Shown here in pieces: positions 2,710 through 63,024 of a stretch of DNA of 64,000 bases (position 1 is its first letter; every line of letters starts with the position of its first letter). Both the position numbers and the translations under genes were made by a program. Source of the stretch: a virus; IMG/VR virus record IMGVR_UViG_3300033153_003354, positions 1-64,000 of that record; one strand, given 5' to 3'. The notes beneath the pieces were generated by a model, which worked only from the letters and a program-made list of their open reading frames with translations, ran no database searches and was not told the origin of the DNA.

Positions 2710-3432
2710 ATGGAATTACCAGAGTGGTGGAAGCACAAGGAAAATTATGTGATTATGGATTGCTTAGAAGGCATGAAAGACATTCCTGATAACAGTGTGG
2801 ATTTAATATTAACTGATCCACCATTTAATGTTGGTATAGATTATGGTAAAAATACAAATGATGTTATGAATGATTCTGATTATTCATATTGGATAGAAAA
2901 AAGATTATTAGAATTTGAACGTATCATAAAAAATGGAAAACCAATAATAATATTTACTGGCGATAAAAAAATATATTCAATATTAAATGCAGTTAAAAAT
3001 ACCAATTTAATGTTTCATCATCATTTTTTTAAATGGAATAAACCATCTGGTCAACGAGGATTGTCTGGTTGGGTTTTATTTAATCGTACAGAATTAGCAT
3101 TATTATTAACAAAAGGAAAACCACAACAAAATATATTAAACAGAAAAATACTATATTCTGATACACTTATACATGAAAACACAAAACCAAACGATAAAGA
3201 TGCAGTTAATCATCCATGTAGAAGACCAACAAAATTATATTCACATATAATCAAAGGAATGACCAAGAAAAATGATATAATCCTAGACCCGTTCTTGGGT
3301 TCAGGTACTACACTTTTAGCATGTAAGGAAACCAATAGAATAGGGTTGGGATTTGAGATTAACCCAGAGTATGAATCCATTATTAGAGATAGGACAATAT
3401 CTAAATCTGAAACTATAGGAGATTATTTCTAG
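2710..3432 (+). CDS. N4/N6 DNA methyltransferase (beta class) MTase1
   Basis: TDPPF ... HPCRRP ... DPFLGSGTT. Confidence 0.92.
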   Translation: MELPEWWKHKENYVIMDCLEGMKDIPDNSVDLILTDPPFNVGIDYGKNTNDVMNDSDYSYWIEKRLLEFERIIKNGKPIIIFTGDKKIYSILNAVKNTNLMFHHHFFKWNKPSGQRGLSGWVLFNRTELALLLTKGKPQQNILNRKILYSDTLIHENTKPNDKDAVNHPCRRPTKLYSHIIKGMTKKNDIILDPFLGSGTTLLACKETNRIGLGFEINPEYESIIRDRTISKSETIGDYF

Positions 3433-3441
3433 GAGTATTTA

Positions 3442-4833
3442 ATGACAAACGAAACATCTTCCGTATGGCAAGATCTTGTGCCAACATATCATTATCCACC
3501 ATTACCAAGTGAACGACATTTGTATGGTAAACATTTAATAGAAGATTTTGAAGTAGTGTTTGGTAAAAAGGTATGGAATACCCCACATACTGATAAATTA
3601 GTATTGCATGTTGTATCTGGGCAACTTCAAGCAATGAAAAAAGTAAGACTTAATGTGTTAGATACACAACTTGATCTTCGGATTCATGGAACAGTGTTTC
3701 AAAGTTCAGGTAGTGGTAAGGGTAGGGCATTTAATGGTGCTGCTGAATTATGTCAATATTTAGATTTGAATTATCAACCAATCACAGAAATAACAGATGC
3801 TGCATTGATAGGATCATGGGAAAAAAATACAATCTATATTCCAAAAAAGGGAGAAAAAATAGTAAAAACATTATTGCCTGGTTGGTTACATCCATCACAA
3901 AACATACATATAATTGCAATGAATGAAGCCGAAGTTTTATTTTCAACAAAAGTTAGTCCACATGCAAAAAATACCATGACTTACTATCAGATAGCAATGA
4001 ATACAATGGGAACCAAAGATAATGAATTGGTGAAAAAACTCATCTCTGGTCCAGAACCAGTTGTTTGTAATCCAGAATTTTCGTTACTTTTAACTTCTTA
4101 TCTCCCAGAGAATTTACTTAAAGTCATTGTTGAGCGTGGATTTTTACAACGACAAATTAATGTTATCAATGATGTAACTTCTCAAGATCGTCTTGAAACA
4201 GCTCTTTATTCTGTGCATAATCTTGGGAAAAAACCAATAGGAAAATATTCATTGAAAGAAATAGGAGATAGGTTATTGGTGGTTAACCAGCACATTGAAA
4301 GCAACCCACACATTAATATTTCGGATGATGCAATAAATGGTATGGAGGTTGTTGTTAATGATATATTTAATCCACTTGATGAAGTATCTATATTTCCAAA
4401 AAAGAAATTGGAAGAATATGTTCATAGATATTTAGAACACACTTATAAAATTGCAACACATCACATGTTCTTTAGATTGGACAATACAATGAAATCCGAA
4501 GATGTTGCTTATGCAAAGAATTTCATAATTCCAATATGGAACAAAATAGTTTCATATATAGAAGATTCAGTTCAAGATAATCCAAAAGAACATGAAAAAA
4601 GAATAACAGAATATAGAATTATGAAAGAATGTTATGATGCTTTGGTAGCAGAAAAATTCACTACTGGATGGGTTCCATTACCAACACTTTCAAATTTATT
4701 GCAAAATCAATGGGATGTAAGTAGACCACTCACAGAAAAAAGAATAGAACGTGCAATAGAAGCAGGAATGTTTGAAAGAAAAAAGAAAGGACTTACTAAA
4801 TATGTTCATTTTCTTAAATTACCAAAGAAATGA
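3442..4833 (+). CDS. divergent MCM-like AAA+ ATPase, putative replicative helicase
   Basis: SSGSGKG Walker A, TDAALIGS (MCM-like), IAMNEAE Walker B variant, wHTH-like C-terminus; lies in the replication cluster. Confidence 0.55.
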   Translation: MTNETSSVWQDLVPTYHYPPLPSERHLYGKHLIEDFEVVFGKKVWNTPHTDKLVLHVVSGQLQAMKKVRLNVLDTQLDLRIHGTVFQSSGSGKGRAFNGAAELCQYLDLNYQPITEITDAALIGSWEKNTIYIPKKGEKIVKTLLPGWLHPSQNIHIIAMNEAEVLFSTKVSPHAKNTMTYYQIAMNTMGTKDNELVKKLISGPEPVVCNPEFSLLLTSYLPENLLKVIVERGFLQRQINVINDVTSQDRLETALYSVHNLGKKPIGKYSLKEIGDRLLVVNQHIESNPHINISDDAINGMEVVVNDIFNPLDEVSIFPKKKLEEYVHRYLEHTYKIATHHMFFRLDNTMKSEDVAYAKNFIIPIWNKIVSYIEDSVQDNPKEHEKRITEYRIMKECYDALVAEKFTTGWVPLPTLSNLLQNQWDVSRPLTEKRIERAIEAGMFERKKKGLTKYVHFLKLPKK

Positions 4834-5847: not shown

Positions 5848-6927
5848 ATGGGATTTGAAAATTTTAAAGATGAAATCGAAGATGGTACTGAAGAACGAGA
5901 AGAACAAATTGAAGTAATGAATGAGGTTCCAATTGTTAATGGTTCATCATTGGTTGAAGATAGAGTATGGAAAATAATGATAGATGGTGAATCAGCTTCT
6001 GGAAAAACAGATTTCGCTCTTGGATGGATTAATTATGAAATTGAGGACCTTGGAAAAAAACCGGAAGATGTTCTTTTATGTATCATTGATTTAGATGATG
6101 GTGTTACACCATTATTGCAACAAGGAAGGGTAAAACCACAACATCGTGATAGAGTTTTGTATTTACCTTGTAAGGATTTTGCAAGTTTTTTAAGATCGTA
6201 TGAACAATTCAAACCAGTATTGATTGAACACAATGAAAAAACTGGAAATAAAGGAATGTTGTTTGTTGATAATATGCACCAACTTTGGGAATGGGCGAGA
6301 GAAAAATATACCAAAGATTCTTATGGTATGACAATGGAAAAACTTCTTATTTTGCGAAGAAAAAAGGCAATAGAAAATAATACTTTTGTTCCAACATTTG
6401 ATCAAATATCAGATTATGGAATTATAAATCCATTGCATAATGATCCATTGGAAGATATGAAATTTGAATCAAATAGATATTTCCATTATATTTGGGCAAC
6501 ACCAACAAAAAGTGAGTTTGAAACAAGAAAACCAAAACCAGGTGGTCAAAAAGACAACATCCTCCGAGTGGATTATCATCTTCGGAAATATACAGAAGGA
6601 GAAGATGTAAATCTTCGATACTTTGCAGATTTGATAAAGAATCGTGGATTATCAAGAACATTTGTTCATCTTGAAAATCCAACATTCTCACGATTTGCAA
6701 AAGCAATCGAAACCATCAAGGAAGCGGATAAAAATGTTCGTGAAATAGATTTACCAATTTTGCCCAATGACGAAAAGGATGTAGATGGTGAAGATGACAT
6801 TGGATGGAATTCAACATCTTCTGAAAAAGAAACAATTCCAAAAGAAGAAAAGGAACAAATTGAAGTTTCAAATGGAATAACAGAACAAGAAGAAATGACA
6901 GAAGATGAAGAAGATATTGAGTGGTGA
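5848..6927 (+). CDS. RecA/Sak4-like P-loop ATPase
   Basis: GESASGKT, IIDLDDG, LFVDNM; long acidic tail. Confidence 0.65.
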   Translation: MGFENFKDEIEDGTEEREEQIEVMNEVPIVNGSSLVEDRVWKIMIDGESASGKTDFALGWINYEIEDLGKKPEDVLLCIIDLDDGVTPLLQQGRVKPQHRDRVLYLPCKDFASFLRSYEQFKPVLIEHNEKTGNKGMLFVDNMHQLWEWAREKYTKDSYGMTMEKLLILRRKKAIENNTFVPTFDQISDYGIINPLHNDPLEDMKFESNRYFHYIWATPTKSEFETRKPKPGGQKDNILRVDYHLRKYTEGEDVNLRYFADLIKNRGLSRTFVHLENPTFSRFAKAIETIKEADKNVREIDLPILPNDEKDVDGEDDIGWNSTSSEKETIPKEEKEQIEVSNGITEQEEMTEDEEDIEW

Positions 6928-7730
6928 AACGAATGACAAAAACAATAATAACAGCTAAACAATCAACATTTATAAAAATGTTAGATATGTTAGTTGGAGC
7001 AACAAAATCTAGGAAAACATATTTTGGTGAAGTTATTCTGGAGCTTACAACAGATACCATAAACTGTAAAGCTACTGATTCAGACCGAACAATTTTTTTG
7101 GTTTCTGAATTCAGAAATTTCACAGTAAAAACAACAAAGAAAGGAATGTCAATTGCAATCAGTCCTCTTACATGGTTGAAATATATGAACACTCTTTTTT
7201 CACCCGATGATGAAATTACAGTTGAATGTGAAGAACACACGATCAAGATCATCGGACCAAAAGATCAAGCAACAATACCAGCAACGGATCCAGAATTGGT
7301 CAACTCAAAGGTTGATGTTATTCCTTTCAAACTTGATGATAATGTTCCATCATATAAGAAAGGAACAATCAAAGCAACAACAATTGTTGAGATCGATGTA
7401 AATATCATGAGAGAACTCATGAAACGTGCTCAACTGGTAGGACAGTATTTTTATCCATTGAGTTTTCAAACACCAAATAAATTCACACCAACAGTTGGAG
7501 ATGTAACAAGGCGTGATAGTGCAACAATAACGTCTACATTTGATAATCTGGTGGTTGAAGGTGAGAACCTAGATGTTATATTAGCTGAAGGATTTGAAGT
7601 CATATTCAACTCTTTGGACGGTGTTGTGAAATTGCATGGTAAAACCAACTTCCCATTATGGGTAGTGAAAGAAACACAAGATTATACAGTTGGATTCATG
7701 GTAGCACCGAGAAAAGAATTATCTGATTGA
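6921..7730 (+). CDS. pcna: PCNA-like sliding clamp
   Basis: ~265 aa; KATDSDRT motif, FPLWV and C-terminal FMVAPR typical of PCNA; RFC genes nearby. Confidence 0.8.
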   Translation: MVKRMTKTIITAKQSTFIKMLDMLVGATKSRKTYFGEVILELTTDTINCKATDSDRTIFLVSEFRNFTVKTTKKGMSIAISPLTWLKYMNTLFSPDDEITVECEEHTIKIIGPKDQATIPATDPELVNSKVDVIPFKLDDNVPSYKKGTIKATTIVEIDVNIMRELMKRAQLVGQYFYPLSFQTPNKFTPTVGDVTRRDSATITSTFDNLVVEGENLDVILAEGFEVIFNSLDGVVKLHGKTNFPLWVVKETQDYTVGFMVAPRKELSD

Positions 7731-8806
7731 GCTGGTACAGCATGATAGACACATTTTGGAATGAAACCCCAAGAGCAGTTGGATCACCATTCCAAAAAAT
7801 AGTTTGGTCCAAAGATGAATTGGATAAATTTATCAATGATTCTAATGGCCAAACTATTTGTTTTACTTCCCACAATTCTTATCCTAAAGTTGAAAGGGCA
7901 TTTGGAACACCATTAACCACGAATGTATCAAAGATTTTCATTGATCTTGATGATGAAAAGAAACCAGAAAACGCCTTGTTAGATTGTCGATATTTAGTAA
8001 AGTGGGCACAAAAAGAAGGACTTCCATTTGCTTCTGCATTTAGTGGAGGTAAAGGATTTCATTTTTATATTTTATTGGAACCACAAATTTATAATATCAA
8101 CACTGGTCTTGGTGAATATTTTAGAAACATCCAACAATGGGTGACAACAAAATTAAAATTAAGAACAGCAGATAAAAGAATCTTTGGTGATTCAAAACGA
8201 TTGTGTAGAATGTGGTATACTCAATATGCAAAAACCGAGAAAAAAACCAGAAAAATCATCATGGGAGATACAAAATGTGTTCCTCTAACACCTGGACAAA
8301 TCCTTCATTGGTCAATCAATGATATTATTGAATATTCAATAGAACCAGAGAAAATACAAGAAGAATTTCAACCAGCATATTCTGAAAAAACAGAATTGAA
8401 ATTACATGAATTTGCAAAGACGTTTGATATTAAGATCGAAACAGTAAGTCAAAGACAATATGTAAGAGAGGAAGAACAGTCAAAATATGTAAAACCATCC
8501 AATGATTACATAAAGAATTTGTTTCCTCGTAAATGTATGCACAACGAACTTCTTAAAGATAATCCAAATCATGATGCACGTTTTGCAGCAGTTGTTCATC
8601 TAAAATCCTTGGGATTTACTCCTGGGAAAATTTACAAGTTATTTTTATCTTTGAATTGGATCGATATAGGAAACACTGAAACAATGCGTTATCAAGTTAA
8701 TCACATTTATAATCGTGTTCCAGAATATAAATTGCCAACTTGTTATTGGATTAAAAAGAAAGGATTTTGTGTTGGTAAGGAATGCGAAAAATATTGGGAG
8801 GAATAA
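7727..8806 (+). CDS. archaeo-eukaryotic primase, PriS-PriL(C-terminal) fusion
   Basis: FIDLD, FSGGKGFH and RLCR motifs; C-terminal KCM...NHDARF...PTC...C...C Fe-S-like domain. Confidence 0.85.
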   Translation: MSWYSMIDTFWNETPRAVGSPFQKIVWSKDELDKFINDSNGQTICFTSHNSYPKVERAFGTPLTTNVSKIFIDLDDEKKPENALLDCRYLVKWAQKEGLPFASAFSGGKGFHFYILLEPQIYNINTGLGEYFRNIQQWVTTKLKLRTADKRIFGDSKRLCRMWYTQYAKTEKKTRKIIMGDTKCVPLTPGQILHWSINDIIEYSIEPEKIQEEFQPAYSEKTELKLHEFAKTFDIKIETVSQRQYVREEEQSKYVKPSNDYIKNLFPRKCMHNELLKDNPNHDARFAAVVHLKSLGFTPGKIYKLFLSLNWIDIGNTETMRYQVNHIYNRVPEYKLPTCYWIKKKGFCVGKECEKYWEE

Positions 8807-8808
8807 GA

Positions 8809-10893
8809 ATGAATAAATTACCAGAATGGTGGAATGATGATAAATCATATAAAATAATGAATTGTCTTGATGGGATGAAAGAATTACCTGATAATTGTAT
8901 AGATGCAATTGTAACTGATCCACCTTATTTTCTTGTTAACAATAGTGGTTTTGGTTTTATGGGAAAGAAATGGGATAGTTTAAATATTAGTAATGCTTAT
9001 AGTATAGTATGCAAATCAAACGAAATTGCAAAAACTGTGGTTCGATTTTTTATGTCGTGTCGAGCAGAATCAAATTTGGAAGAGGTAAATATTGTTCAAG
9101 AAAATGTCAATATGCATCTAAACCAAGCAAAAACAAAATCCATTGTGAATGTTCAGTGTGTGGAAAAAAATTCACACGATATAAAAGCCAAATCATTAGC
9201 AAATATCAATTCTGTTCACGGGATTGTTCTTACAAAGGTCGAAGTATTGGATATGTTGAAAGAGTCGTATCCAAACCATATGACTGTTATAGAAAACCAG
9301 AACGAAAATGTATTGTTTGCAGTACCAATTTCATTTATAGAAAAAAATCTCAAAAACACTGTAGCAGAACATGTTTTGAAATTTCCCATAGAGGGAATAT
9401 GCTCGGAAAAAGAAACCCATCTTTTATTGATGGAAGAAGTAAGGATAAAAAATGTTATCGGGGGGATGATTGGGAACATATTAGAAAACGAGTATATGAA
9501 CGAGATAATTATACCTGCCAATACTGTGGAAAACACTGTAAAAAAAAGGAAATACAGGCACATCACAAACGAAAATATTGTGAAACACAAGATAATTCAA
9601 TGGATAACCTTATTACTTTATGTAACAAATGTCACCCCAGAATCGAAGCAGGAATTTATACAATCTCTAATAGTACAATTCCACAAAAACTGGACAATTC
9701 AAGCAATTAGAGTGTTAAAACCAGGTGGTTATTTACTTTCATTTGCAGGGACACGAACACATCATCATATGACACAAGCTATAGAGGATGCTGGATTTGA
9801 AATCAGGGATATGATTTGCTGGGTGTATGGTTCAGGATTTCCTAAATCTCACAATATCGGAAAATCGGTTGATAAATTACAAGGGAATGAAAGAGAAATT
9901 GTTGGAGAAAAGATTAGAGGAAATGTTGAGAAAGCAAAACACGGAGTAACTTTTGCAGGAGCAGACGCAAATAAAAATAATAAATGTATTTTCGGATATG
10001 GGAAAGAAATTTTAACAAAAGGAGTAACACAATGGGAAGGATGGGGCACTGCGCTAAAACCCGCCATGGAACCTATAACGGTTGCAAGAAAACCACTTGG
10101 TGAGAAAACTGTTGCAAAGAATGTGCTGAAATGGGAAACTGGTGGAATTAATATTGATGGTTGTAGAGTTGAATATTTAAATAATGATGATAATAGAATA
10201 GGAAAAAACTATTCACATAAAGCTAAAAGTGGATTAGAAATAGGAAAAAATAAAAATAATTCATCTGGTGAAATACAACAATTACATAATACAAAAGGAA
10301 GATTCCCAGCCAACCTAATCCATGATGGAAGTGAAGAAGTTTTAGATTTATTTCCTGATACAAAAAGTGGTAGTGGGAATGGTAATGCATCAATTGGTGA
10401 ACCAGGAAACGTTACACCTTTAAGAAGGGGCAAATTAATTCCAAGAAATGATTCAGGTTCAGCATCACGATTTTTTTATTTAGCCAAAACATCAAAATCT
10501 GAAAGAAATGTTGGTTGTGAAAATCTTTATTGGTTAGATGGAAAATTAATAGAACACCATCTTTGGCAAACTCTAACAGATGAAAATGAACAACATAAAA
10601 ATGAAAAATCATGGAAACAACACAATGTATCAAATGGTAATATTCATCCAACAGTTAAACCACTGAAATTAATAGAATATCTTGTACGATTAGTAACACC
10701 ACCAAAAGGTGTTGTGTTAGATCCATTTTTGGGTAGTGGAACTACTATCGTTGCATGTCAAAACGAAGGATTTATTGGATTGGGTTTTGAAATGTCAGAT
10801 GAATATGCAGATATAATTGATTGCAGAATCAATAATAAAGAAATAACCAAAGATGAACAAATAGAAATACAATCCATGGATAAATTTTGGTGA
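8809..10893 (+). CDS. N4/N6 DNA methyltransferase MTase2 with ~230-aa insertion
   Basis: DPPY, RVLKPGG, YGSGFPKS, HPTVKP, DPFLGSGTT; likely start MNKLPEWW after GGAGG. Confidence 0.9.
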   Translation: MNKLPEWWNDDKSYKIMNCLDGMKELPDNCIDAIVTDPPYFLVNNSGFGFMGKKWDSLNISNAYSIVCKSNEIAKTVVRFFMSCRAESNLEEVNIVQENVNMHLNQAKTKSIVNVQCVEKNSHDIKAKSLANINSVHGIVLTKVEVLDMLKESYPNHMTVIENQNENVLFAVPISFIEKNLKNTVAEHVLKFPIEGICSEKETHLLLMEEVRIKNVIGGMIGNILENEYMNEIIIPANTVENTVKKRKYRHITNENIVKHKIIQWITLLLYVTNVTPESKQEFIQSLIVQFHKNWTIQAIRVLKPGGYLLSFAGTRTHHHMTQAIEDAGFEIRDMICWVYGSGFPKSHNIGKSVDKLQGNEREIVGEKIRGNVEKAKHGVTFAGADANKNNKCIFGYGKEILTKGVTQWEGWGTALKPAMEPITVARKPLGEKTVAKNVLKWETGGINIDGCRVEYLNNDDNRIGKNYSHKAKSGLEIGKNKNNSSGEIQQLHNTKGRFPANLIHDGSEEVLDLFPDTKSGSGNGNASIGEPGNVTPLRRGKLIPRNDSGSASRFFYLAKTSKSERNVGCENLYWLDGKLIEHHLWQTLTDENEQHKNEKSWKQHNVSNGNIHPTVKPLKLIEYLVRLVTPPKGVVLDPFLGSGTTIVACQNEGFIGLGFEMSDEYADIIDCRINNKEITKDEQIEIQSMDKFW
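9009..9710 (+). CDS. HNH endonuclease with N-terminal Zn-binding repeats, nested out of frame in MTase2
   Basis: Three CxxC...CSRxC repeats; RDNYTCQYCG...AHH...NSMDNLITLCNKCH. Confidence 0.88.
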   Translation: MQIKRNCKNCGSIFYVVSSRIKFGRGKYCSRKCQYASKPSKNKIHCECSVCGKKFTRYKSQIISKYQFCSRDCSYKGRSIGYVERVVSKPYDCYRKPERKCIVCSTNFIYRKKSQKHCSRTCFEISHRGNMLGKRNPSFIDGRSKDKKCYRGDDWEHIRKRVYERDNYTCQYCGKHCKKKEIQAHHKRKYCETQDNSMDNLITLCNKCHPRIEAGIYTISNSTIPQKLDNSSN

Positions 10894-10898
10894 TTAAA

Positions 10899-11558
10899 AT
10901 GGAATTAAAAATTGACATACGAGAAACACAAGAACGAATAAATCTTGCAAAATCATTGGTTGATGAAAGTGAAGTTGTAATGTTAGAAGTTGGAGATTAT
11001 GTTTTTGGACCAGTTGGTGTTGAATATAAAGAAGATGATTTTCTATCTTCGGTTACAGGAAGAAAAATGTTTCAACAATTACAAGAATTAGGAGATAATT
11101 ATGAATATCCATTGTTGATTGTAGGAAAGAATTTAGATGAACTATATGAAGAAACAATAAATTCGGATTCTGAAGAAAAAGGAATGCATGAAAACGCTTT
11201 CATTGGCACGATTGCAAGTATGATAGCACGTGGAATTCCACCAATTTTCTTGAGTAACAAAGAATTGGCGATGAAAATCATGATTAAATCTATGGAAAAA
11301 CTAACAGATGGTAAAGATCGTAGAATAAATACTGCAATACGACCAACAGCAAAGGTAGAAGATTATCAACTTGCTATTTTAAAGAGTTTTCCTTTGATGG
11401 GTAGTAAGAAAGCCAATATAGTATTGAATCATTTTGGATCCATAGAAAAATTCATGGGTGCATCCATAGAAGAAATGAAAGAAATAAAAGGCATTGGCAA
11501 ACAAGCAGAAAAATGGTATAATATTATTCATTATGAAGATGATGAAATTGAATGGTAA
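10899..11558 (+). CDS. ERCC4/XPF nuclease with HhH motifs
   Basis: IDIRE, VGDY, VEYK; C-terminal HFGSI...IKGIGK. Confidence 0.88.
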   Translation: MELKIDIRETQERINLAKSLVDESEVVMLEVGDYVFGPVGVEYKEDDFLSSVTGRKMFQQLQELGDNYEYPLLIVGKNLDELYEETINSDSEEKGMHENAFIGTIASMIARGIPPIFLSNKELAMKIMIKSMEKLTDGKDRRINTAIRPTAKVEDYQLAILKSFPLMGSKKANIVLNHFGSIEKFMGASIEEMKEIKGIGKQAEKWYNIIHYEDDEIEW

Positions 11559-11985: not shown

Positions 11986-12396
11986 ATGAAACAAATAAAA
12001 TTTAGAATATTTTTAGGTGAAAACTATTTTTATTGGGGTTTTGTAAAACATGGAAAACATTTGGTATTTAATGGGTTGCCAAGTGATATACATGATACTA
12101 AATCATTAGAAGAAATTCAAGAAAAATCACAACAATATTCTAATCGTAGAGATAAAAATGATGTTAACATATGTGAGGGTGATTATGTTGGACATGTGAT
12201 TGATGGTAAAATTGTTGGTACTATAATGATGGTTAAGCATGGAGAATACGATAATGATGAAAAGTATGGAGATAATATATCTGGTAATGGATGGTATTTG
12301 GAAACCGATGGTTTCATATTACCTTTTTATATAGAAACATATACAGAAGTTGTTGGAAATATTAACGAAGGTATAAAAATTAATAACGGTGAATAA
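11986..12396 (+). CDS. YopX-family protein
   Basis: IKFR, DKNDVNICEGD, EVVGNINE. Confidence 0.75.
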   Translation: MKQIKFRIFLGENYFYWGFVKHGKHLVFNGLPSDIHDTKSLEEIQEKSQQYSNRRDKNDVNICEGDYVGHVIDGKIVGTIMMVKHGEYDNDEKYGDNISGNGWYLETDGFILPFYIETYTEVVGNINEGIKINNGE

Positions 12397-13369
12397 CATG
12401 AACAACATGGCAACAGAATTATACAGACCAACACAACTATCAAACGTCTTTGGACAGGATCATGTGGTAAAGAGATTGAAAGGATATGTTCAACGTGGTA
12501 ATATTCCACATTTCTTGTTTGCCGGACCTCCGGGAACAGGAAAAACAACGTGTGCTATTGCCCTTGCCAAAGAGTTGTATGGAGATGGTTGGAAGAACAA
12601 TTGGTTAGAATTGAATGCTTCAGATGAGCGTGGAATTGATGTTGTACGAACCAAAGTTAAAGGATTTGCTCCAGTATCTTCAATGCACGATGATATAGAA
12701 TTTAAGATAATTTTCCTCGATGAAGCAGATCACATGACCAAAGATGCACAAGCATCATTGAGAAGAGTTATGGAAACATACAGCAAAACTTGCCGTTTTA
12801 TATTATCTTGTAATTATCAAAACAAAATTATATCTCCTTTACAAGATAGATGTGCTATATTTAGATTTGAACCTATTGCAGAAGATAAAATCGTTAAATT
12901 TATAACAACACAATCTACAAACACATTCAACTACAAAATACAAGATGATGCTGTTGATATTGTTGCAAAGGCATGTAAAGGTAGCTTGAGAAGAGCAATG
13001 ACATACTTGGATATGTTCTCTCTTGGTGGAGATATTATTACTACCAAAGATGTTTTGGAAATTCTCAAGGAACCAACTAAGGATGACCTTGAAAAACTCA
13101 AACAAGCAATCATCGGTGGTAACATGAAATTTTGGGAATCAACACTGTTTCAAATGTATTACAAGGGTGGTTTTTCATATATTGAAATATTGGATTCTCT
13201 TTATGATATGATGGTTGGAGATGTCGATGAGAAATTCACTAAAGATCAAAAGATAGCATGTATAATAGCAATTTCTGATACCGATCACTACATTGCTGAA
13301 GGCGGAAATGAACTTCTTCAATTGAGGTGTTTGTTTGGTCGAATAGTCAAAATTATTGGTGGGAAATAG
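12389..13369 (+). CDS. rfcS: replication factor C small subunit
   Basis: YRP, GPPGTGKTT, LELNASDERGIDVVR, LDEAD. Confidence 0.95.
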   Translation: MNNMNNMATELYRPTQLSNVFGQDHVVKRLKGYVQRGNIPHFLFAGPPGTGKTTCAIALAKELYGDGWKNNWLELNASDERGIDVVRTKVKGFAPVSSMHDDIEFKIIFLDEADHMTKDAQASLRRVMETYSKTCRFILSCNYQNKIISPLQDRCAIFRFEPIAEDKIVKFITTQSTNTFNYKIQDDAVDIVAKACKGSLRRAMTYLDMFSLGGDIITTKDVLEILKEPTKDDLEKLKQAIIGGNMKFWESTLFQMYYKGGFSYIEILDSLYDMMVGDVDEKFTKDQKIACIIAISDTDHYIAEGGNELLQLRCLFGRIVKIIGGK

Positions 13370-14020
13370 ATGGAATTACCAAATTGGTGGAAACATAAAG
13401 AACAATATGCAATTATGGATTGCTTGGAAGGGATGAAGGATATTCCTGACAATAGTATTGATTTGGTGTTGACCGATCCACCTTATGGTGTTGGTATTGA
13501 TTACGGTGATACTTATGATGATACAGAAAATAATTGGTTTGAATTGATGGATAAATTTATACCAGAAGCATGTAGAATAGGAAAAATGGTAGCTTTTCCA
13601 GCTGGGAAACAAACAAGACTTGGTTGGTATTTCAATAATCATACACCATATTGGTTAATATGTTGGTACAAAGGCTCACCTGGTACAAGGGGAAACCTTG
13701 GATTTGAAGATTGGGAAGCAATAATTGTATATGGCAAGAACAAAGGTGTTCAAATGCATGATTATTTCTATTGTGGACCAAGACCATTTGATAATGGTCA
13801 TCCATGTCCAAAACCTGTTGGGTGGAGTACATGGTTGATTGAACGAATGACAAAGAAAAATGATATAGTTTTAGATCCATTCCTTGGTAGTGGAACCACC
13901 ATGAGATCATGTAGAGAAACTGGAAGAATTGGATTGGGATTTGAGATAAATCCAGACTATGAATCAATTATAAGAAAACAAGCAACATCTGATGCAGAAA
14001 CATTAAATGATTATTTTTAG
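13370..14020 (+). CDS. N4/N6 DNA methyltransferase MTase3
   Basis: TDPPY, HPCPKP, DPFLGSGTT. Confidence 0.92.
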   Translation: MELPNWWKHKEQYAIMDCLEGMKDIPDNSIDLVLTDPPYGVGIDYGDTYDDTENNWFELMDKFIPEACRIGKMVAFPAGKQTRLGWYFNNHTPYWLICWYKGSPGTRGNLGFEDWEAIIVYGKNKGVQMHDYFYCGPRPFDNGHPCPKPVGWSTWLIERMTKKNDIVLDPFLGSGTTMRSCRETGRIGLGFEINPDYESIIRKQATSDAETLNDYF

Positions 14021-14030
14021 GAGGAAAAGC

Positions 14031-16415: not shown

Positions 16416-16786
16416 ACAAAAAAATAAGAGATGAAATAAAAAAAGAAGTTATGCGAACAGAAATTGTGAAACCAGCACTATATGCACAAGTATGTGATGC
16501 GTGTGATAAGATATTTGATATGAAATCTTATTGCAACGATGATCCACCAGCCGGAGAAATGATAATAACATTTGATAAAAGAAGGATAAATAAAGGTGGG
16601 AATTTTGGTGTATGGACCGTTTGTTCATTCAATTGTGCTCAAAGAATCTTTGATGGTGAATGGAAAAAATCTGATCATGCAATTGGTTTTAGACAACATT
16701 CAAAACCAGTTAGATTTATAGTTACAATAACACCATTTATCAAAGATGAATTGCAACTTATAAAAGAATGGGAAGAAAAGGATTAA
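16409..16786 (+). CDS. hypothetical Zn-finger protein
   Basis: CDAC ... CSFNC; overlaps its neighbours. Confidence 0.55.
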   Translation: MVNKKIRDEIKKEVMRTEIVKPALYAQVCDACDKIFDMKSYCNDDPPAGEMIITFDKRRINKGGNFGVWTVCSFNCAQRIFDGEWKKSDHAIGFRQHSKPVRFIVTITPFIKDELQLIKEWEEKD

Positions 16787-49936: not shown

Positions 49937-50560
49937 ATGTTAATGATTGGAAATACCATTCTTAAACTAACAGATTCAGAATTCTTGGAAAAACTAGAAA
50001 AGATAATACAACTTCTTGGTAATGATAACAAACTAGAATTTATTTGGCTAACTTCATCAAATAAAGAAATCAGTACTGATTTCCCATTAATTGTTTTTGA
50101 AGAAAAAGATTCTGGTGATATGAAAACAATGAAATATACAGAATTTTCAACATGGCAAAGTGCTAGACATGAAAAGAAAATTAGAGTAAAACTTAAAAAC
50201 ACAAGATCAGAATATAGTACATTAAAACCATCTTCGGTCAAATTAAAAATTATATCAACAAAGTTAAAATCATCAATTTCTAAACCAAAGATGAATAAAT
50301 ATGTTTGTAAAAAATGTCAATCTATACGAACATATTATAAAGAACAAGAAGGATTATATAGGGTTTTGAAACCAGAAGATGATGTTGTTAAAGGTATTAT
50401 ACCCAAACGATGCCATTCATGTTTAGATTGGTTATTTAGAGGATCACAAATGACTGAAGGAACATGTCCCTTACCTAGAATACTTGAACGATATACACCA
50501 CAATTAATGTTTGAATACGAAAAAGACATTGAAGAAAATGAAATGTCCGATTTTTTCTAG
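49937..50560 (+). CDS. hypothetical Zn-finger protein with PIP-like tail
   Basis: CKKC, CHSC; ends EMSDFF. Confidence 0.6.
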   Translation: MLMIGNTILKLTDSEFLEKLEKIIQLLGNDNKLEFIWLTSSNKEISTDFPLIVFEEKDSGDMKTMKYTEFSTWQSARHEKKIRVKLKNTRSEYSTLKPSSVKLKIISTKLKSSISKPKMNKYVCKKCQSIRTYYKEQEGLYRVLKPEDDVVKGIIPKRCHSCLDWLFRGSQMTEGTCPLPRILERYTPQLMFEYEKDIEENEMSDFF

Positions 50561-50612: not shown

Positions 50613-50750
50613 ATGGTATCATATATCAAAAGAGCAAGAAAAATAGGAGGATCCTTGGTTGTAACAATACCAATGGAAATAGCAGAAATATTAGAAATAA
50701 AAGATCGTGACTTTGTTAAAGTTGTATTGGAAAAGGTAAATGAAAAATGA
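50613..50750 (+). CDS. AbrB/MazE/SpoVT-family DNA-binding protein (45 aa)
   Basis: ARKIGGSLVVTIPMEIAEILEIK; TATA-like box upstream; ATGA overlap with tnpB. Confidence 0.8.
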   Translation: MVSYIKRARKIGGSLVVTIPMEIAEILEIKDRDFVKVVLEKVNEK

Positions 50751-51757
50751 TATTGACATTCAAGATTAGACATAACCGAGATTTCACTGATGAATTGGTA
50801 AAAGCCAAAAAGATAGCAGAATTTGGAATAAAAACAAAGGCTTTATCTTCTGCTGCTGTTAAACATATTGGGTTAAAATCTGCAATAGCATGTCAAATTT
50901 TACGTAAATATTCTAAAAATAAAAAATGTAAATCTGCATCAAACGTATTATTAACAATCCCTGGACAAGTTATAAAACACGATAAAGAAAAACAAACAAT
51001 ATGGATTGCTTGTTTAAAACTGAATTTGGATTATTATTTTCGTAATGATTTTGAAAAAATAAATCAAATTGAAATTAATGATAAATATGCATTTGTATCA
51101 ATAACAATACCAGATGAAAAACAAATAAAACCAGAGGGATATATTGGTGTAGATCTAAATACAACTGGTCATTCGGTTGTTATTGGAAATCCAGAAACAG
51201 GAAAGGTTGTCAAGATGGGTAAAAATGCTCATCATATTCATAAAAAATATAGTAAGATAAGAAAAAATTTACAGAAAAAAGGCAAATTTGGGAGATTGAA
51301 AAAACACAAAAATAAAGAAAATAGAATAATTAAAGATATGAATCATAAGATGAGTAGAAAAATTGTCAATATGGCAAATGAAAATAATAATGGTATAAAA
51401 TTGGAAGATTTAAAAGGAATAAAAAATAGAGTTAAATCATCAAAATCATTCAAATATTCTTTGAACAGTTGGTCATTTTATCAGTTACAGAAAATGATAG
51501 AATATAAAGCCAAGATGCTAGGAATACCAGTAATTTATATTGAACCACAATACACAAGTCAGTTGTGTTCAAGATGTGGTCTTATAGGTAACAGAAATGG
51601 TAAGAAATTTAAATGTCCAAGTTGTAACCATGTTGATAATGCCGATGTAAATGCTTCATTCAATATAGCACTACGTCCAGAAGGTATGTATCAATTCGAT
51701 GCAGACAGAGATGTATCGGAAGGGTTTAATGGTAATCCTAAAGAGGAAATGGTATGA
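50747..51757 (+). CDS. tnpB: TnpB RNA-guided nuclease (IS200/IS605 family)
   Basis: RuvC GVDL, LEDL, ADVNAS; Zn finger CSRC/CPSC; YTSQ. Confidence 0.93.
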   Translation: MILTFKIRHNRDFTDELVKAKKIAEFGIKTKALSSAAVKHIGLKSAIACQILRKYSKNKKCKSASNVLLTIPGQVIKHDKEKQTIWIACLKLNLDYYFRNDFEKINQIEINDKYAFVSITIPDEKQIKPEGYIGVDLNTTGHSVVIGNPETGKVVKMGKNAHHIHKKYSKIRKNLQKKGKFGRLKKHKNKENRIIKDMNHKMSRKIVNMANENNNGIKLEDLKGIKNRVKSSKSFKYSLNSWSFYQLQKMIEYKAKMLGIPVIYIEPQYTSQLCSRCGLIGNRNGKKFKCPSCNHVDNADVNASFNIALRPEGMYQFDADRDVSEGFNGNPKEEMV

Positions 51758-53345: not shown

Positions 53346-54167
53346 GTGACATTACGTGAAACAATGAAAGTTTGGAAAAGACCACATGACAATCTCACTT
53401 ACCGAGATAGGTGTGTTGAAGATACTGCTCGGCATCAATGTGAAATCATTAATCGACCTAACAAAACATTATTTTTTGCGTGTGAAAACGGAAGTAGAAC
53501 ATATGGATTTATGCGTGAAGATAGTGATGTTGATATTCGTGGTGTATATTTGGAATCTTCTAGTTCACTAATTGGATTACACAAACCAAAAGACACCATC
53601 ACTGGTATAGATCAAACTGGATATTTGGATTGGCAATTATTTGAAATTCGTAAATTTATGAATTTAATTCTGAAGTCAAATTTAAATTGTTTAGAGTGGA
53701 TATTTAATCATCAATCTTACGTTAATCTTCAATGTCACAATGAATTTAGAGATCTGATGAAACTTTCAAAACAATGTATTACTCGAAAATTAGGAAATCA
53801 TGCCAGAGGATGGGCATATCAAATATATAAAATGGATTGGAATGAACCAAAAAAGTGTCTATATGCCATTCGACCTCTTATGTTATATATTATTCTAATG
53901 AGAGATGAACTATTCATATCGGACATTAGAGAGCTTGGTAGGCGAATGGAAATAGAAGATCATATCAACAATCTGATTAATGTTAGAAATGAAAATCTAC
54001 CAACACCAAGACATTTAAAAGATAAGAATGTCAAAATATATGAAGAATTTGTTGAATTGAGTAGAAAATTAGAATCAGATTGTTGGATCCCGAAAAAACT
54101 ACCAGACAGTATTGAAAATGAAATGAATGAACAACTTCTTTGGTTAAGAATGAAACCATTTACGTAG
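53346..54167 (+). CDS. Pol-beta-like nucleotidyltransferase (YcgL/RlaP-like)
   Basis: GSRTYG..REDSDVDIRGVY, KSNLNCLEWI. Confidence 0.85.
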   Translation: MTLRETMKVWKRPHDNLTYRDRCVEDTARHQCEIINRPNKTLFFACENGSRTYGFMREDSDVDIRGVYLESSSSLIGLHKPKDTITGIDQTGYLDWQLFEIRKFMNLILKSNLNCLEWIFNHQSYVNLQCHNEFRDLMKLSKQCITRKLGNHARGWAYQIYKMDWNEPKKCLYAIRPLMLYIILMRDELFISDIRELGRRMEIEDHINNLINVRNENLPTPRHLKDKNVKIYEEFVELSRKLESDCWIPKKLPDSIENEMNEQLLWLRMKPFT

Positions 54168-55336
54168 GTGAAAAAATGAGTAGAAAAATGAGTGAAGAAA
54201 ATGCATCTCCATCAAAAGAAAAAATGGAAGATATAATTTTAATTAAATCTAATAGTCAATTTCTTATTGAAAATATAGAATATATTAAAGATAAATATAA
54301 ACCACACATTAAAAACAAACCAATAATAAATGCTATAAATAATTCACCTTCTTTGATAGGTATAATTAAGTGGGCGATTAAAAATACAAAAGAATTACAT
54401 GATGTTATATATAGAAATTATGAAGATTCATATGGAAACAAAACTCTACCGACACATTTTGTTGCGGTTGGGGACAATTGGACATTAATTATATCTCCAA
54501 TGTATCATGAAAGAATATCACTTTTGTTTACAGATACCAAAGAAACATATGATAAAATAACAGATATTACACCAGAATATTATAATCCTGGAAACTACCG
54601 CATTAATAGTTGTATTGGTGGTTTTTATTTAGACCCAATTGATATAAAACCTGGAACATCACCAATTTTAGATAATGATTTGCAAACAACTGTAATCGAA
54701 GATATAAAAAGATTTTATGATTTTGCTGATTTTTACAAAGAACACGAATTACCACATATGCGTGGTATTTTGTTTCATGGTCCACCTGGAAATGGAAAAA
54801 CCAGTTTAATTTTATCTACAATTAAGGAAATAAAAGATTCTTATAATATAATAATGCCACTTGATATTGTTGGTCTTGATGTTATGAAATATTTATCAAC
54901 GGTTTTAAAACCAGAAGATAAAAAAATCATTATATTAGAAGATATAGATGGTGTAGATAAATATGAAAGAAGTAACATTTTAAATTTTCTTGATGGTATA
55001 AATGGCATGGAAAACACAATTATCCTTGGAACAACCAATTATATTCACTTGGTAGATGCAGCAATGGTAGATAGACCAAGTAGATTTGATAGAATATATC
55101 ATATTGATCTACCATCTGCCAGTTCTAGAAAGAAATTAATAAAACAATTCTTTCCTGATGTTACCGAAGATGAACTTAAATCTGCTGTTATTAACACAGA
55201 TGAATTTCCTGGTTGTTTTTTTAAAGAGATTTTCCTTGTTTCTAATTTACAAAACCTATCATTGGGAGAAGCGATTAAAGAACTGAAAATACATTTACAA
55301 AATCATAAGAAAAACACCAGAGTTGAATGTGTATGA
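54140..55336 (+). CDS. AAA+ ATPase
   Basis: GILFHGPPGNGKT, LEDID, TTNY, DRPSRFD. Confidence 0.9.
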   Translation: MVKNETIYVGEKMSRKMSEENASPSKEKMEDIILIKSNSQFLIENIEYIKDKYKPHIKNKPIINAINNSPSLIGIIKWAIKNTKELHDVIYRNYEDSYGNKTLPTHFVAVGDNWTLIISPMYHERISLLFTDTKETYDKITDITPEYYNPGNYRINSCIGGFYLDPIDIKPGTSPILDNDLQTTVIEDIKRFYDFADFYKEHELPHMRGILFHGPPGNGKTSLILSTIKEIKDSYNIIMPLDIVGLDVMKYLSTVLKPEDKKIIILEDIDGVDKYERSNILNFLDGINGMENTIILGTTNYIHLVDAAMVDRPSRFDRIYHIDLPSASSRKKLIKQFFPDVTEDELKSAVINTDEFPGCFFKEIFLVSNLQNLSLGEAIKELKIHLQNHKKNTRVECV

Positions 55337-59683: not shown

Positions 59684-59898
59684 ATCAAGAAACTGGATGG
59701 AGCATCGAGGATATAACCTATGGTGGTATTGTATGGAGAGTTATAACATCAAATAACCAACCAAGAGGATTCATTTTTCGACCTACCAAAGATGTGCCTT
59801 TTGCATATCGACCAGGAAGTGAATACGAATTATTGCAAGAAGAAGATTTGATTGCTATATCCAAACTGTTTAAATTTGTTAATGGGATGATAAAATGA
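59665..59898 (+). CDS. hypothetical protein
   Basis: Overlaps its neighbours. Confidence 0.5.
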   Translation: MDMQHIDQETGWSIEDITYGGIVWRVITSNNQPRGFIFRPTKDVPFAYRPGSEYELLQEEDLIAISKLFKFVNGMIK

Positions 59899-62039
59899 AA
59901 AGTGAATATTTAATTGGTGATGCCAAAGATGTGTTGAAAACACTACCAGATAAACATTTTCAGTGTGTTGTTACAAGTCCTCCTTATTGGGGGTTGCGAT
60001 CATATTTGCCCGATGATGATGCAGAGAAAAAGAACGAACTTGGTACTGAACAAACACCAGAAGAATATGTTGCCAACCTAGTTGATGTTTTTCGTGAAGT
60101 AAAAAGGGTGTTACGTGACGATGGAAATGTTTGGTTGAACCTGGGCGATAGTTATGCTTCATCTGCTACTGGATCATTTAATGGAGGAGGATTCAAAGAT
60201 TCTTCTGCAAAATCGGGTGGTAGAAATTTATCTGGAGTAGAATCAAGTGGAAAAATGGATAAATTAAAAGCAAGTGGACTCAAACCAAAAGATTTGGTTG
60301 GAATCCCGTGGCGTGTCGCATTTGCACTTCAGCAGGACGGTTGGTGGTTACGCCAGGATATAATATGGTGTCTATCAGGAGGAACCTATCTATACGTCAA
60401 ATCACAGAAGGGAATCATGCCGATGACGGTGAAAGATTTATACCGACTCGATTTGACAAAATGTCAATTATGGAACGGTGATAAATGGACTAATATACTC
60501 GGTATGAACAAATCTAAACGAAAAGGCGATGAGTTGGAAATGGTTTTACGAAGCGGAGAAAGAATATCATGTACACCAAATCATAAATTCCCAACCGAAA
60601 GAGGAAATATAGAAGCATTGGAAATCGAAATTGGGGATGTAATTGAATCTGTTATGTTGCCCGATGGGAACACACCAGAATATATCAATGCTGAAATGGC
60701 ATGGTTTATTGGCATCTATTTGGCGGAAGGGTCTAAAAGCGGAAGTGCGTTGCAGATAGCGGGACATGTCAAAGAAAAAACTCGGTGGGAACGCATACAG
60801 CAAATGGTGAAGTATTATGGGGGCTCTTGTACCCGTACAATATCCGGCAATAAAATGGACATCCGGGTTTATGGTAGAATCATTCATGCTATCATAACTG
60901 AACATATTTCTGGAAGAATAGCAAAGAACAAAGGACTGTCTAATAAATGTTGGCAATACGATAACAAGTTTTTGGATAACTTACTAACTGGGTATCTGGA
61001 AGGTGACGGTCATTGGGACAAGGAAAATAAAAGGTGGCGACTCGGATTCACACGAAACTATAATCTTGAACGTGATTTGAGATCGTTGTCTGCAAGGCTG
61101 GGATATTCCATAACATTAAAACCCAACATATCGGAAAATACCGTAACAGGGAAAAAACACCCATCATTCAGAGGCGAAATTAGGAAAACCGTATCTAATC
61201 ACCACAATAATAAATCAAGAAATGAAGTGGTTGAAATTCGTAAAGCAAGATGTAGGTATGTGTATGACTTGGGTGTTGAGGATTACCCACATACATTTTC
61301 GTTGGCAAGTGGTATATTAACACACAACTCAAAGCCCAATCCTATGCCAGAAAGTGTTACCGACAGATGCACAAAATCCCACGAATACGTCTTTTTGTTG
61401 ACTAAATCGGCAAGATATTATTACGATTCTGATGCAATAAGGGAAAACCACGACCACCCATCAATAAATCATAAATCGGATAGAAAAACCACTGAACAAG
61501 AAAAATCGTTCATCGGAAAAGCACCAACAAATTTAGGTAGATGTGGTAACAACCCAAACGGCAGAAACAAACGCTCGGTGTGGACAATTAATACAAAACC
61601 GTATAAGGAAGCTCATTTCGCAGTATTTCCGCCAGAATTACCAGAACTGTGCATAAAAGCTGGAACAAGTGCCAAAGGACAATGCTCGAAATGTGGAAAT
61701 CCTTGGATTAGAGAAATTGAGAAAATACAAACCAACAAAAGCAACGAAAAAGGTATAACTGAAATGATAGAAAAAGGTGTTCCAAGACAAAAAGCAAATT
61801 TATATGTTACACAAAAAAGAGGAACAAATAAAACAATCGGATGGAAACCAACATGTGATTGCAATGCAAAAATCGTACCACAAATCGTTCTAGATCCCTT
61901 TGCCGGAAGTGGGACAACAATTATGGTTGCAAAGGAACTTGGCAGACATGGTATTGGAATTGATCTCAATGATAAATATCGTGAAATTGCTGTCCGAAGA
62001 TGTAATTTAGATGTTGAATCAGTGGAGGATTTCTTTTGA
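59895..62039 (+). CDS. N4/N6 DNA methyltransferase MTase4 containing an intein
   Basis: TSPPYWGLR, KPNPMPES, HFAVFP, DPFAGSGTT. Confidence 0.93.
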   Translation: MKSEYLIGDAKDVLKTLPDKHFQCVVTSPPYWGLRSYLPDDDAEKKNELGTEQTPEEYVANLVDVFREVKRVLRDDGNVWLNLGDSYASSATGSFNGGGFKDSSAKSGGRNLSGVESSGKMDKLKASGLKPKDLVGIPWRVAFALQQDGWWLRQDIIWCLSGGTYLYVKSQKGIMPMTVKDLYRLDLTKCQLWNGDKWTNILGMNKSKRKGDELEMVLRSGERISCTPNHKFPTERGNIEALEIEIGDVIESVMLPDGNTPEYINAEMAWFIGIYLAEGSKSGSALQIAGHVKEKTRWERIQQMVKYYGGSCTRTISGNKMDIRVYGRIIHAIITEHISGRIAKNKGLSNKCWQYDNKFLDNLLTGYLEGDGHWDKENKRWRLGFTRNYNLERDLRSLSARLGYSITLKPNISENTVTGKKHPSFRGEIRKTVSNHHNNKSRNEVVEIRKARCRYVYDLGVEDYPHTFSLASGILTHNSKPNPMPESVTDRCTKSHEYVFLLTKSARYYYDSDAIRENHDHPSINHKSDRKTTEQEKSFIGKAPTNLGRCGNNPNGRNKRSVWTINTKPYKEAHFAVFPPELPELCIKAGTSAKGQCSKCGNPWIREIEKIQTNKSNEKGITEMIEKGVPRQKANLYVTQKRGTNKTIGWKPTCDCNAKIVPQIVLDPFAGSGTTIMVAKELGRHGIGIDLNDKYREIAVRRCNLDVESVEDFF
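60369..61328 (+). mobile_element. intein with LAGLIDADG homing endonuclease (320 aa)
   Basis: Starts CLSGGT; block B TPNH; GIYLAEG and GYLEGDG; VYDL...ILTHN followed by Ser. Confidence 0.93.
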
Positions 62040-62064
62040 AAATAATAGAATTATTTAATATAAG

Positions 62065-63024
62065 GTGAAAATGAAAGTTCTTTTGATACAAATTGATGGG
62101 AAACTCCCAAATCTAGCCCTTATGAAGTTATCACAATACCATAAAGATCGTGGTGATATAGTTGTTCTTGAAAAATATAATCGTGCTCCAGGATGGGATA
62201 TTCATAACCCAGATATGGTATATATTTCTTGTATTTGGAAAGAAAATCGTTTAGGTGCATTGGATGCACGAGATTTTTACCAACAACGTGGGATAAAAAC
62301 AATCATTGGTGGATCCGGTGTTGATTTAACTACAAAACTTGATCCAGACATTGAAAGATTGAAACCCGACTATTCATTATATCCAGACAACGACAAATCA
62401 ATGGGCTTTACAACGAGAGGGTGCATAAGGAAATGTGGTTTTTGTATAGTGCCAAAGAAAGAGGGCAAGATATGTAAATGGCAACATCCGAGAGAGTTTC
62501 ATAACGAGGACTTTAACAAGATAACTTTACTTGATAGTAATGGTTATGCTATGAAAGATTGGTTCTTTGAGGTTACAGATTGGTATATGGAACAAGGATT
62601 AAAAATCGCTTACAATCAAGGGTTTGATATTAGGATATTGACAGAAGAAATCGCAGGAAGATTGGCAGATTTAAAATATTATGAAACCTTACATTTTGCC
62701 TTTGATGGTATGGAGTATGAAGAAAAGGTGGTTGATGGTATTCAAATGTTGAAAGATGCAGGGATAAATATAAGATCAATGGTTCAATTTTTTGTATTGG
62801 TAGGTTACAATACCACCAAAGATGAAGATAAATATAGATGTCGATTATTGAAGGAATTAGGTACTGGTGCGTATGTCATGAGATATAAAACCACTCCTTG
62901 GACAAAGAAAATATATCGTTGGGCTAACAGAAAAGAATTGTTTTGGTCTATTGATATAGATGATTACGATAGAAATCCAAAACCAATTATCCCAGAAGCA
63001 GATAGTATAATGGAATTTATGTAA
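62065..63024 (+). CDS. radical SAM protein
   Basis: PNLALMKLS, TTRGCIRKCGFC...EG. Confidence 0.88.
   Translation: MKMKVLLIQIDGKLPNLALMKLSQYHKDRGDIVVLEKYNRAPGWDIHNPDMVYISCIWKENRLGALDARDFYQQRGIKTIIGGSGVDLTTKLDPDIERLKPDYSLYPDNDKSMGFTTRGCIRKCGFCIVPKKEGKICKWQHPREFHNEDFNKITLLDSNGYAMKDWFFEVTDWYMEQGLKIAYNQGFDIRILTEEIAGRLADLKYYETLHFAFDGMEYEEKVVDGIQMLKDAGINIRSMVQFFVLVGYNTTKDEDKYRCRLLKELGTGAYVMRYKTTPWTKKIYRWANRKELFWSIDIDDYDRNPKPIIPEADSIMEFM

Follow-up and report, generated by a model that had tools for sequence, protein, structure and literature searches.

Probable sliding-clamp docking tails on the DNA methyltransferases and replication proteins of a virus that encodes its own divergent PCNA

Why should eight proteins of a single virus, among them its DNA polymerase, the large subunit of its clamp loader, every DNA methyltransferase that we can detect and a radical-SAM enzyme, end in nearly the same short peptide? 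The question is raised by the opening 64 kb of an IMG/VR virus record of 81,382 bases (IMGVR_UViG_3300033153_003354; completeness estimate 60%), and by "the window" we mean this whole stretch of 64,000 nucleotides, positions 1 to 64,000 of the record. The genome has a G+C content of about 32%; its minus strand carries a tailed-virus morphogenesis block, large terminase included, and its plus strand an archaeal-type replication block. Comparison of the sequences leads us to the view that the eight tails are probably docking peptides for a sliding clamp, of the kind called the PIP box (from PCNA-interacting protein). The eight C-termini, read from the translations, are as follows.

3406-3429, plus strand: tail of DNA methyltransferase 1 (MTase1), SETIGDYF
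10867-10890, plus strand: tail of MTase2, IQSMDKFW
13994-14017, plus strand: tail of MTase3, AETLNDYF
16389-16412, plus strand: tail of the family B DNA polymerase (PolB), QSSLEEFW, a canonical PIP box
17806-17829, plus strand: tail of the RFC large subunit (RFC-large), SKGLDNFF
50534-50557, plus strand: tail of an orphan open reading frame (ORF), 49937-50560, ENEMSDFF
62013-62036, plus strand: tail of MTase4, VESVEDFF
62998-63021, plus strand: tail of the radical-SAM enzyme, ADSIMEFM

The common form is a hydrophobic residue, any residue, an acidic or polar residue and two aromatics (h-x-[acidic or polar]-aromatic-aromatic), placed at the free C-terminus behind a short polar linker. Among 77 non-overlapping ORFs of at least 50 residues, seven end in [LIMV]xx[FYW][FYW]-COOH, where the internal frequency of the pattern (56 of 20,292 positions) predicts 0.21 (binomial P 2.5e-9); if a final Met is allowed, the count becomes eight of 77 against an expected 0.26 (69 of 20,292 internally; P 3.1e-10). 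The motif is terminal in all eight carriers, and all eight belong to the 61 ORFs of at least 100 residues. As an empirical background, the terminal motif is present in 6 of 2,618 ORFs from 129 other IMG/VR loci, with no locus having two, and none of the record's other 47 ORFs, which lie outside the window and whose listed C-termini were read by eye, has it. The tails are strongly non-random.

Set beside the PIP pattern of a hydrophobic residue at position 4 and aromatics at positions 7 and 8, seven of the eight tails match fully, the radical-SAM tail having Phe-Met at positions 7 and 8. The PIP glutamine at position 1 is found solely in PolB, the other seven having S, S, I, A, V, A or E, and the glutamine of the MTase2 tail is one residue too near the hydrophobic position for a canonical PIP box; with seven tails lacking it, the strict PIP definition thus does not describe the set. 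The QxxLF form, which resembles bacterial beta-clamp motifs, occurs in none of the eight window tails.

The large terminase (47515-49095, minus strand) ends ...SSKIDKFFRKG, so that three residues follow its hydrophobic-x-x-aromatic-aromatic motif. It may be a ninth client, whose tail might tie packaging to the clamp; a tie between packaging and the clamp has been reported for T4.

PolB and RFC-large serve as built-in positive controls, since they have the same tail at the position of the archaeal PIP box. The available parts of two papers describe archaeal PolB, RFC-large, Fen1 and others as binding PCNA via C-terminal QxxhxxΩΩ motifs (PMC7776575, PMC4929162), and the second of these gives, in the same parts, a QXXhXXaa rule and a consensus peptide, KTTQSTLDSFFK, bound to Archaeoglobus PCNA (PMC4929162). 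The best named relatives of the window's PolB are those of haloarchaeal tailed viruses, at 27-29% identity. Where it ends ...GQEQSSLEEFW, its halovirus orthologues have ...GQSQTGLAAFC and ...GQHQTGLGAFV; these halovirus ends fit the Q-x-x-L-x-x-F-x consensus given for Haloferax in the available part of its source (PMC7776575).

The replication block contains a clamp as well as its loader, and we list here the genes that together make up a replisome.

6921-7730, plus strand: PCNA-family sliding clamp, very divergent; the Met at residue 5 may be the start (profile and Atlas model)
7727-8806, plus strand: PriL-like primase subunit (NCBIfam PriL models, E 3.9e-10, under their curated cut-offs)
12389-13369, plus strand: RFC small subunit, without a tail (AAA E 1.6e-17, Rep_fac_C E 7.4e-11)
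14007-16415, plus strand: PolB (DNA_pol_B E 5.8e-42; exonuclease domain E 4.2e-20)
16768-17832, plus strand: RFC large-subunit-like clamp loader ATPase (AAA E 2.2e-11; Rad17 P-loop E 1.2e-6)

Taken as a single sequence, the clamp ORF has no match in Pfam (PCNA_N and PCNA_C included), NCBIfam or the PDB, and a word-indexed protein search returned only the ORF itself among 384 candidates. An exhaustive HMMER scan found 70 clamp relatives at E-values up to 1e-3, 23 of these up to 1e-10, and a profile (A1) was made from 56 of the 70, the other 14 being fragments, odd lengths or partial matches. Against the PDB this profile matches archaeal PCNA 6t7x_A at E 1.9e-13 (positions 24-256 of 257) and a further six archaeal PCNAs at E-values from 2.2e-12 to 2.2e-11, followed by human PCNA (1.5e-5), beta clamps (about 4e-5) and T4 gp45 (3e-4), and the alignment extends into the C-terminal strand (...liaPRvee / LLAPRVEE). 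When the clamp's ESM Atlas model is compared with archaeal PCNA clusters (98-99% PCNA_N), the template modelling (TM) score is 0.80 over 233 residues. From the profile matches and the model we conclude that the virus encodes a very divergent PCNA-family clamp; it brings its own replisome of PCNA, small and large RFC subunits, a PriL-like primase subunit and PolB. A preliminary description of this DNA had proposed a virus-encoded PCNA-family clamp with RFC, and the profile, the Atlas model and the loader matches agree with it; family matches likewise uphold the identities that it gave to the four methyltransferases, PolB, RFC-large and the radical-SAM enzyme, and its reading of the eight C-termini is correct letter for letter. 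Two giant-virus contigs (L008, L009) found by way of the small RFC subunit have no such tails and were set aside as unrelated.

The methyltransferases make up half of the tail carriers, and one of their genes holds a further ORF.

2710-3432, plus strand: MTase1, beta-class N6/N4, DPPF (PF01555 E 4.1e-36)
8782-10893, plus strand: MTase2, DPPY, with a long insert (PF01555 E 3.9e-33)
9009-9710, plus strand: HNH ORF of 233 residues in another frame within the MTase2 insert (PF01844 E 3.1e-7)
13370-14020, plus strand: MTase3, DPPY, a paralogue of MTase1 (45% identical; PF01555 E 4.4e-23)
59895-62039, plus strand: MTase4, SPPY, with an intein (PF01555 E 5.4e-43, in three stretches)

All four are beta-class enzymes, matching PF01555 at E 4e-23 to 5e-43 and having motif IV (DPPF, DPPY, DPPY and SPPY) near the N-terminus, ahead of a motif I (FLGSG or FAGSG) near the C-terminus; SPPY is usually the mark of N4-cytosine enzymes. 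The intein of MTase4, at approximately residues 159-479, contains a LAGLIDADG-like domain (Intein_splicing E 1.8e-8; TIGR01443, intein C-terminal region, E 5.1e-5). Matches to PF01555 are confined to these four open frames of the record, and PF00145, PF02086 and PF02384 have no matches in it, so the earlier statement that all of the DNA methyltransferases carry the tail holds for those that can be detected. The same description had assigned the four to different subfamilies, and this we cannot support: all belong to beta-class PF01555 and have N-terminal and C-terminal modules in common, the former about 58% identical over 38 residues and the latter about 43-45% identical over 51-74 residues, around middles that are unrelated. 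The Pfam methylase domains stop 9-24 residues short of the C-terminus (at residue 225 of 240 in MTase1, 679 of 703 in MTase2 and 202 of 216 in MTase3). The C-terminal alignments of MTase1 with MTase4 and of MTase3 with MTase4 reach the last residue, as does alignment A3, and the common C-terminal module thus implies that the methylase tails were largely inherited as one module.

The arrangement of a conserved N-terminal module (LP[DE]WW...TDPP) and a conserved C-terminal module around unrelated middles is seen both in the window's methylases and in their uncultured relatives, and it suggests that the target-recognition cores have been swapped by recombination.

We then considered whether the motif is a property of this methylase family or of PF01555 in general. 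In the relatives of MTase1, 69 of 106 non-redundant post-domain tails hold h-x-x-aromatic, as against 32.7 +/- 4.4 after shuffling (maximum 46 in 500 shuffles), and the stricter h-x-x-aromatic-hydrophobic form is held by 29 of the 106, as against 10.0 +/- 3.0. Generic phage methylase tails show no enrichment (17 of 66, compared with 14.8 +/- 3.0 shuffled). The motif is terminal in 12 of 117 of the best non-redundant MTase1 homologues and lies at most six residues from the end in 25 of 117; the corresponding figures for generic phage methylases are 0 of 91 and 6 of 91 (Fisher P 0.0014 for the terminal form), the sets here and in the shuffling comparison having been de-replicated by identical tails. 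Counted before that step, the terminal motif is found in none of 102 methylases (91 non-redundant) from 80 generic IMG/VR methylase loci. These loci came from a search with alignment A3, which yielded generic methylase patterns, and they are accordingly a control set and not relatives. Given this zero count and the lack of enrichment, the motif is not a feature of PF01555 at large.

Relatives were also sought with degenerate DNA patterns that encode family-specific peptides, which gave two viral-contig loci (L103, L116), two genome-contig stretches and 23 metagenome-contig stretches. In the uncultured relatives of MTase1 both the distance of the h-x-x-aromatic element from the end and the linker that precedes it vary, as in ...PKLERWF, ...LGSWFE, ...SLDDFME, ...TLDEFI, ...RLDFYFGGRDNGE and ...TLDSFDNIGEL, and many uncultured methylases of the family end ...IPxIExWF or ...LEEYF. 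Alignment A3 includes 18 sequences chosen because they show tails and is therefore biased; it was used for the profile and for display only. Contig L156, from a metagenome, has a PolB fragment ending ...STLDEYFEGAF beside a family methylase with the end ...IPKIDEWF. On another metagenome contig (L155), a 187-residue protein that is not a methylase (1244-1807, plus strand) stands beside two family methylases and has the end ...RRINEWF.

A different tail is found on the phage enzymes. Of 91 generic phage methylases (loci L010-L089), 14 have QxxLF no more than three residues from the end, as in ...SRQLSLF and ...LSQEVLF, compared with an internal rate of 2 in 23,429, and we regard these ends as candidate beta-clamp-docking tails. 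The best 120 homologues of MTase2 comprise nine with PIP-like tails, nine with QxxLF-like tails and 102 with neither; one of the nine PIP-like tails is terminal (that of MTase2 itself) and eight are near-terminal, such as ...ESTLEAFFE. Both kinds of tail thus occur in one methylase lineage, and the motif at the methylase C-terminus appears to match the type of clamp.

Two further virus records carry methylases of the family. Of the 65 ORFs of one (G001, 43.8 kb, about 40% complete), a single one is a family methylase with the tail; the other (G002, complete, 37.6 kb) encodes two family methylases whose tails are degenerate, ...KIDEWGIA and ...IFDWRNEPEPEVVSK. Pfam searches on ten ORFs of the two records did not settle the host domain. 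Profile A1 has no clamp match in either, and it also missed PCNA in an archaeal metagenome-assembled genome that must encode its own, so these clamp negatives are weak. The preliminary description had held that the missing first glutamine gives specificity for the viral clamp. This is unsupported, as tails lacking the glutamine are present on relatives in records where our insensitive search detected no clamp; taken at face value, the negatives speak against such specificity, and host PCNA becomes a possible partner.

The two remaining carriers are not methylases.

62065-63024, plus strand: radical-SAM enzyme of phage family phrog_9298 ("radical SAM domain protein", E 6.4e-61)
49937-50560, plus strand: orphan ORF of 207 residues, with no family match

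The radical-SAM protein scores 20 bits against the Pfam Radical_SAM model (cut-off 29.5), its B12-binding match is likewise below cut-off, and NCBIfam gives none. Aligned with eight named homologues from phages, the protein shows a shared domain that stops about 16 residues before the C-terminus; the homologue of Clostridium phage phiCT453B terminates there, without the 16-residue extension, and none of the eight has the tail motif. Judged by this alignment, the tail of the radical-SAM enzyme is an appended 16-residue extension. As far as domain boundaries can tell, the catalytic folds do not include the tails, which sit on folds that are unrelated to one another, those of the methylases and of the radical-SAM enzyme. 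The radical-SAM gene adjoins MTase4 in the window, and phrog_9298 genes adjoin DNA methyltransferase genes in Bacteroides phage LoVEphage (L173), Oscillospiraceae phage NatCom_21982 (L175) and Dulem virus 39 (L176); this neighbourhood hints at a role in DNA modification, in which the radical-SAM family may form a conserved pair with methylases. For the orphan, searches of Pfam, PHROG, NCBIfam and the PDB gave no match, and the Atlas offered no neighbour that could be used.

Several further genes of the window are listed for completeness.

10887-11558, plus strand: ERCC4/XPF nuclease
18338-20446, plus strand: SNF2 helicase
47515-49095, minus strand: large terminase (Terminase_6N E 1.5e-9)
50747-51757, plus strand: transposase-like ORF, without a tail (phrog_506 E 6.3e-40)
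54140-55336, plus strand: second clamp-loader-like AAA ATPase, without a tail (phrog_7485; weak match to the phrog_168 clamp loader)

There is also a second common tail type, an acidic run followed by I-E-W, on the ERCC4/XPF nuclease (10887-11558, plus strand; ...EDDEIEW) and on an uncharacterised ORF upstream of the clamp gene (5848-6927, plus strand; ...EDEEDIEW), and it has no known reader. Neither ORF 5848 nor ORF 4880 has an informative PDB, Pfam or NCBIfam match.

How else might one account for eight such tails? That an AT-rich genome simply ends many of its genes in Phe, Tyr or Trp codons is hardly credible: a G+C content near 32% does favour Phe, Tyr, Ile, Asn and Lys codons, but the internal rate predicts 0.26 terminal cases where eight are seen (P 3e-10), and the tails are confined to DNA-metabolism proteins and one orphan, with none on the 47 further ORFs of the record. 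More serious is the possibility that the methylases simply inherited their tails with the C-terminal module, where these would act within the molecule or contact DNA, and that the resemblance to the tails of PolB and RFC-large is a coincidence. The conserved C-terminal block of the four methylases does reach the last residue, and the ends ...IPxIExWF and ...LEEYF, kept in many uncultured members, could equally reflect an element of the fold. We nonetheless consider this quite unlikely, because the length and sequence of the linker vary while h-x-x-aromatic persists at shifting distances, as in a short linear motif and unlike a packed helix, because the same tail occurs on the orphan and, as an appended extension, on the radical-SAM enzyme, and because other PF01555 lineages have QxxLF at the tail position instead.

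The likeliest alternative to our own reading is that the tails dock on some other common partner and not on the clamp, whether a hub or adaptor, a single-strand-binding protein, a chaperone, a protease or degradation receptor, or a capsid-loading receptor, with a role in co-localisation, turnover or packaging. A common tail, after all, proves a common reader and not the identity of that reader; the motif is carried by the orphan and, in a near-terminal form, by the terminase, neither of which is a classical clamp client, and the PIP glutamine is missing from seven of the eight. Yet PolB and RFC-large, which are known in archaea to bind PCNA by their tails, bear the very same motif, the PolB tail is orthologous to the Q-x-x-L-x-x-F tails of halovirus polymerases, and family scans of the window identified no candidate for an alternative hub, so that we think a different partner unlikely.

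Our preferred reading, that the eight tails are PIP-type peptides that dock on a sliding clamp, is favoured by the comparative data, which point to a clamp-docking short linear motif. A number of observations weigh against it all the same. The canonical glutamine is present in one tail of the eight. The methylase tails do not count as four independent gains, so that the independent instances of the motif come to about five or six and not eight. Both archaeal-virus homologues of the radical-SAM enzyme, from Methanomassiliicoccales viruses, lack the tail. The best 30 PF01555 ORFs from a DPANN phylum (301 genomes) include no terminal motif and six loose near-terminal ones; four other DPANN ORFs end ...IKPLExF[VLT], resembling the ...IKPLEEYF of the viral family, and only ...KIKPLEGFL fits the loose pattern. 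For comparison, neither the terminal nor the loose form is found in 30 ORFs from a bacterial phylum (121 genomes). PF01555 itself is absent from all five haloviruses and both Methanomassiliicoccales viruses searched, and these named archaeal viruses therefore offer no tail comparison. No related virus with the same clamp family was found among viral contigs, using as queries the clamp, its homologues P0002 and P0003, and alignment A4. Finally, the division between PIP-type tails in archaeal viruses and beta-motif tails in phages is inferred from the type of motif, the relatives having no named hosts.

If the tails do act as PIP-type docking peptides, PolB and RFC-large would use theirs as their cellular and halovirus counterparts do, and the four methylases, the radical-SAM enzyme and the orphan would occupy the same slot on PCNA loaded on viral DNA. 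The clamp concerned could be that of the virus, that of the host, or both. Tethering would concentrate the enzymes on new DNA, the first to need modification, which would be modified just behind the fork, before host nucleases met it in an unmodified state. The motif and its non-random occurrence, the identities of the genes, the clamp and the comparative pattern are what the sequences show; physical binding, the choice of clamp and the biological pay-off are what we infer here; should the tails bind PCNA, the virus would have a simple way to beat restriction, its DNA being marked as it is made.

A wider proposal can be made, and we offer it tentatively, as something possible that we would not yet expect to hold. 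The C-terminus of small beta-class methylases might be a swappable slot, filled with a PIP-type peptide in archaeal viruses and with QxxLF in phages, and clamp-tethered modification might then be general, though so far unrecognised, among viruses of prokaryotes. In the present virus a PCNA tool-belt would line up four methylases, the radical-SAM enzyme, the orphan and perhaps the terminase behind the polymerase, and would thereby couple replication, self-marking and packaging.

Among the papers listed in a literature search we found none that connects DNA methyltransferases of archaea or viruses with a PIP box or a clamp motif. What comes nearest is a NucS pull-down in which PCNA, RFC and a putative adenine methyltransferase co-purified, as given in the available part of its source (PMC4929162). 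The known archaeal clients with C-terminal PIP boxes, as listed in the available parts of two papers, are PolB, PolD DP2, RFC large, Fen1, RNase HII, NucS, NreA and Hef (PMC4929162, PMC7776575). The tails in the window resemble theirs in being short peptides with one hydrophobic and two aromatic residues, at or near the C-terminus behind a linker, on enzymes that handle DNA and in a genome that encodes PCNA and RFC. They differ in that DNA methyltransferases and radical-SAM enzymes are absent from those lists, so far as the same parts of the papers go (PMC4929162, PMC7776575), in that seven of the eight lack glutamine, and in that the clamp is virus-encoded and is missed by the Pfam PCNA models. 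If our reading is true, prokaryote-type DNA methyltransferases and a radical-SAM enzyme join the clients of PCNA.

In bacteria the consensus for binding the beta clamp is QL[SD]LF. This motif resembles the QxxLF ends of generic phage PF01555 enzymes (14 of 91) and is not matched by the tails in the window; among the papers listed in the literature search we found no statement that methylases use the beta-clamp QxxLF motif. Together with the phage QxxLF tails, the tails in the window suggest that orphan viral methylases are often coupled to replication, and if they are, viral methylomes and anti-restriction strategies would be read differently.

Phage T4 offers a further parallel. The clients of its gp45 clamp that have C-terminal tails are the gp43 polymerase and the gp55 and gp33 proteins of late transcription. 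As proposed here, it has a virus-encoded clamp that acts as a tool-belt for viral proteins with a common hydrophobic C-terminal tail; its clients, however, are a polymerase and transcription factors and not DNA-modifying enzymes, and the clamp of the window matches PCNA (E 1.9e-13) better than it does gp45 (E 3e-4).

For methylation itself the comparison is with eukaryotes. DNMT1, a C5 maintenance enzyme whose PCNA-binding region is in its N-terminal part, is recruited to PCNA, so that methylation of new DNA takes place at the fork. The available part of one source names the interaction between DNMT1 and PCNA (PMC5264654). If the window tails bind, the likeness is that a DNA methyltransferase is recruited to PCNA and methylates at the fork; the difference is that the enzymes here are four small prokaryote-type beta-class N6/N4 methylases, encoded by a virus and bearing a C-terminal tail. 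Such an arrangement, if true, would be a non-eukaryotic counterpart of the coupling between DNMT1 and PCNA.

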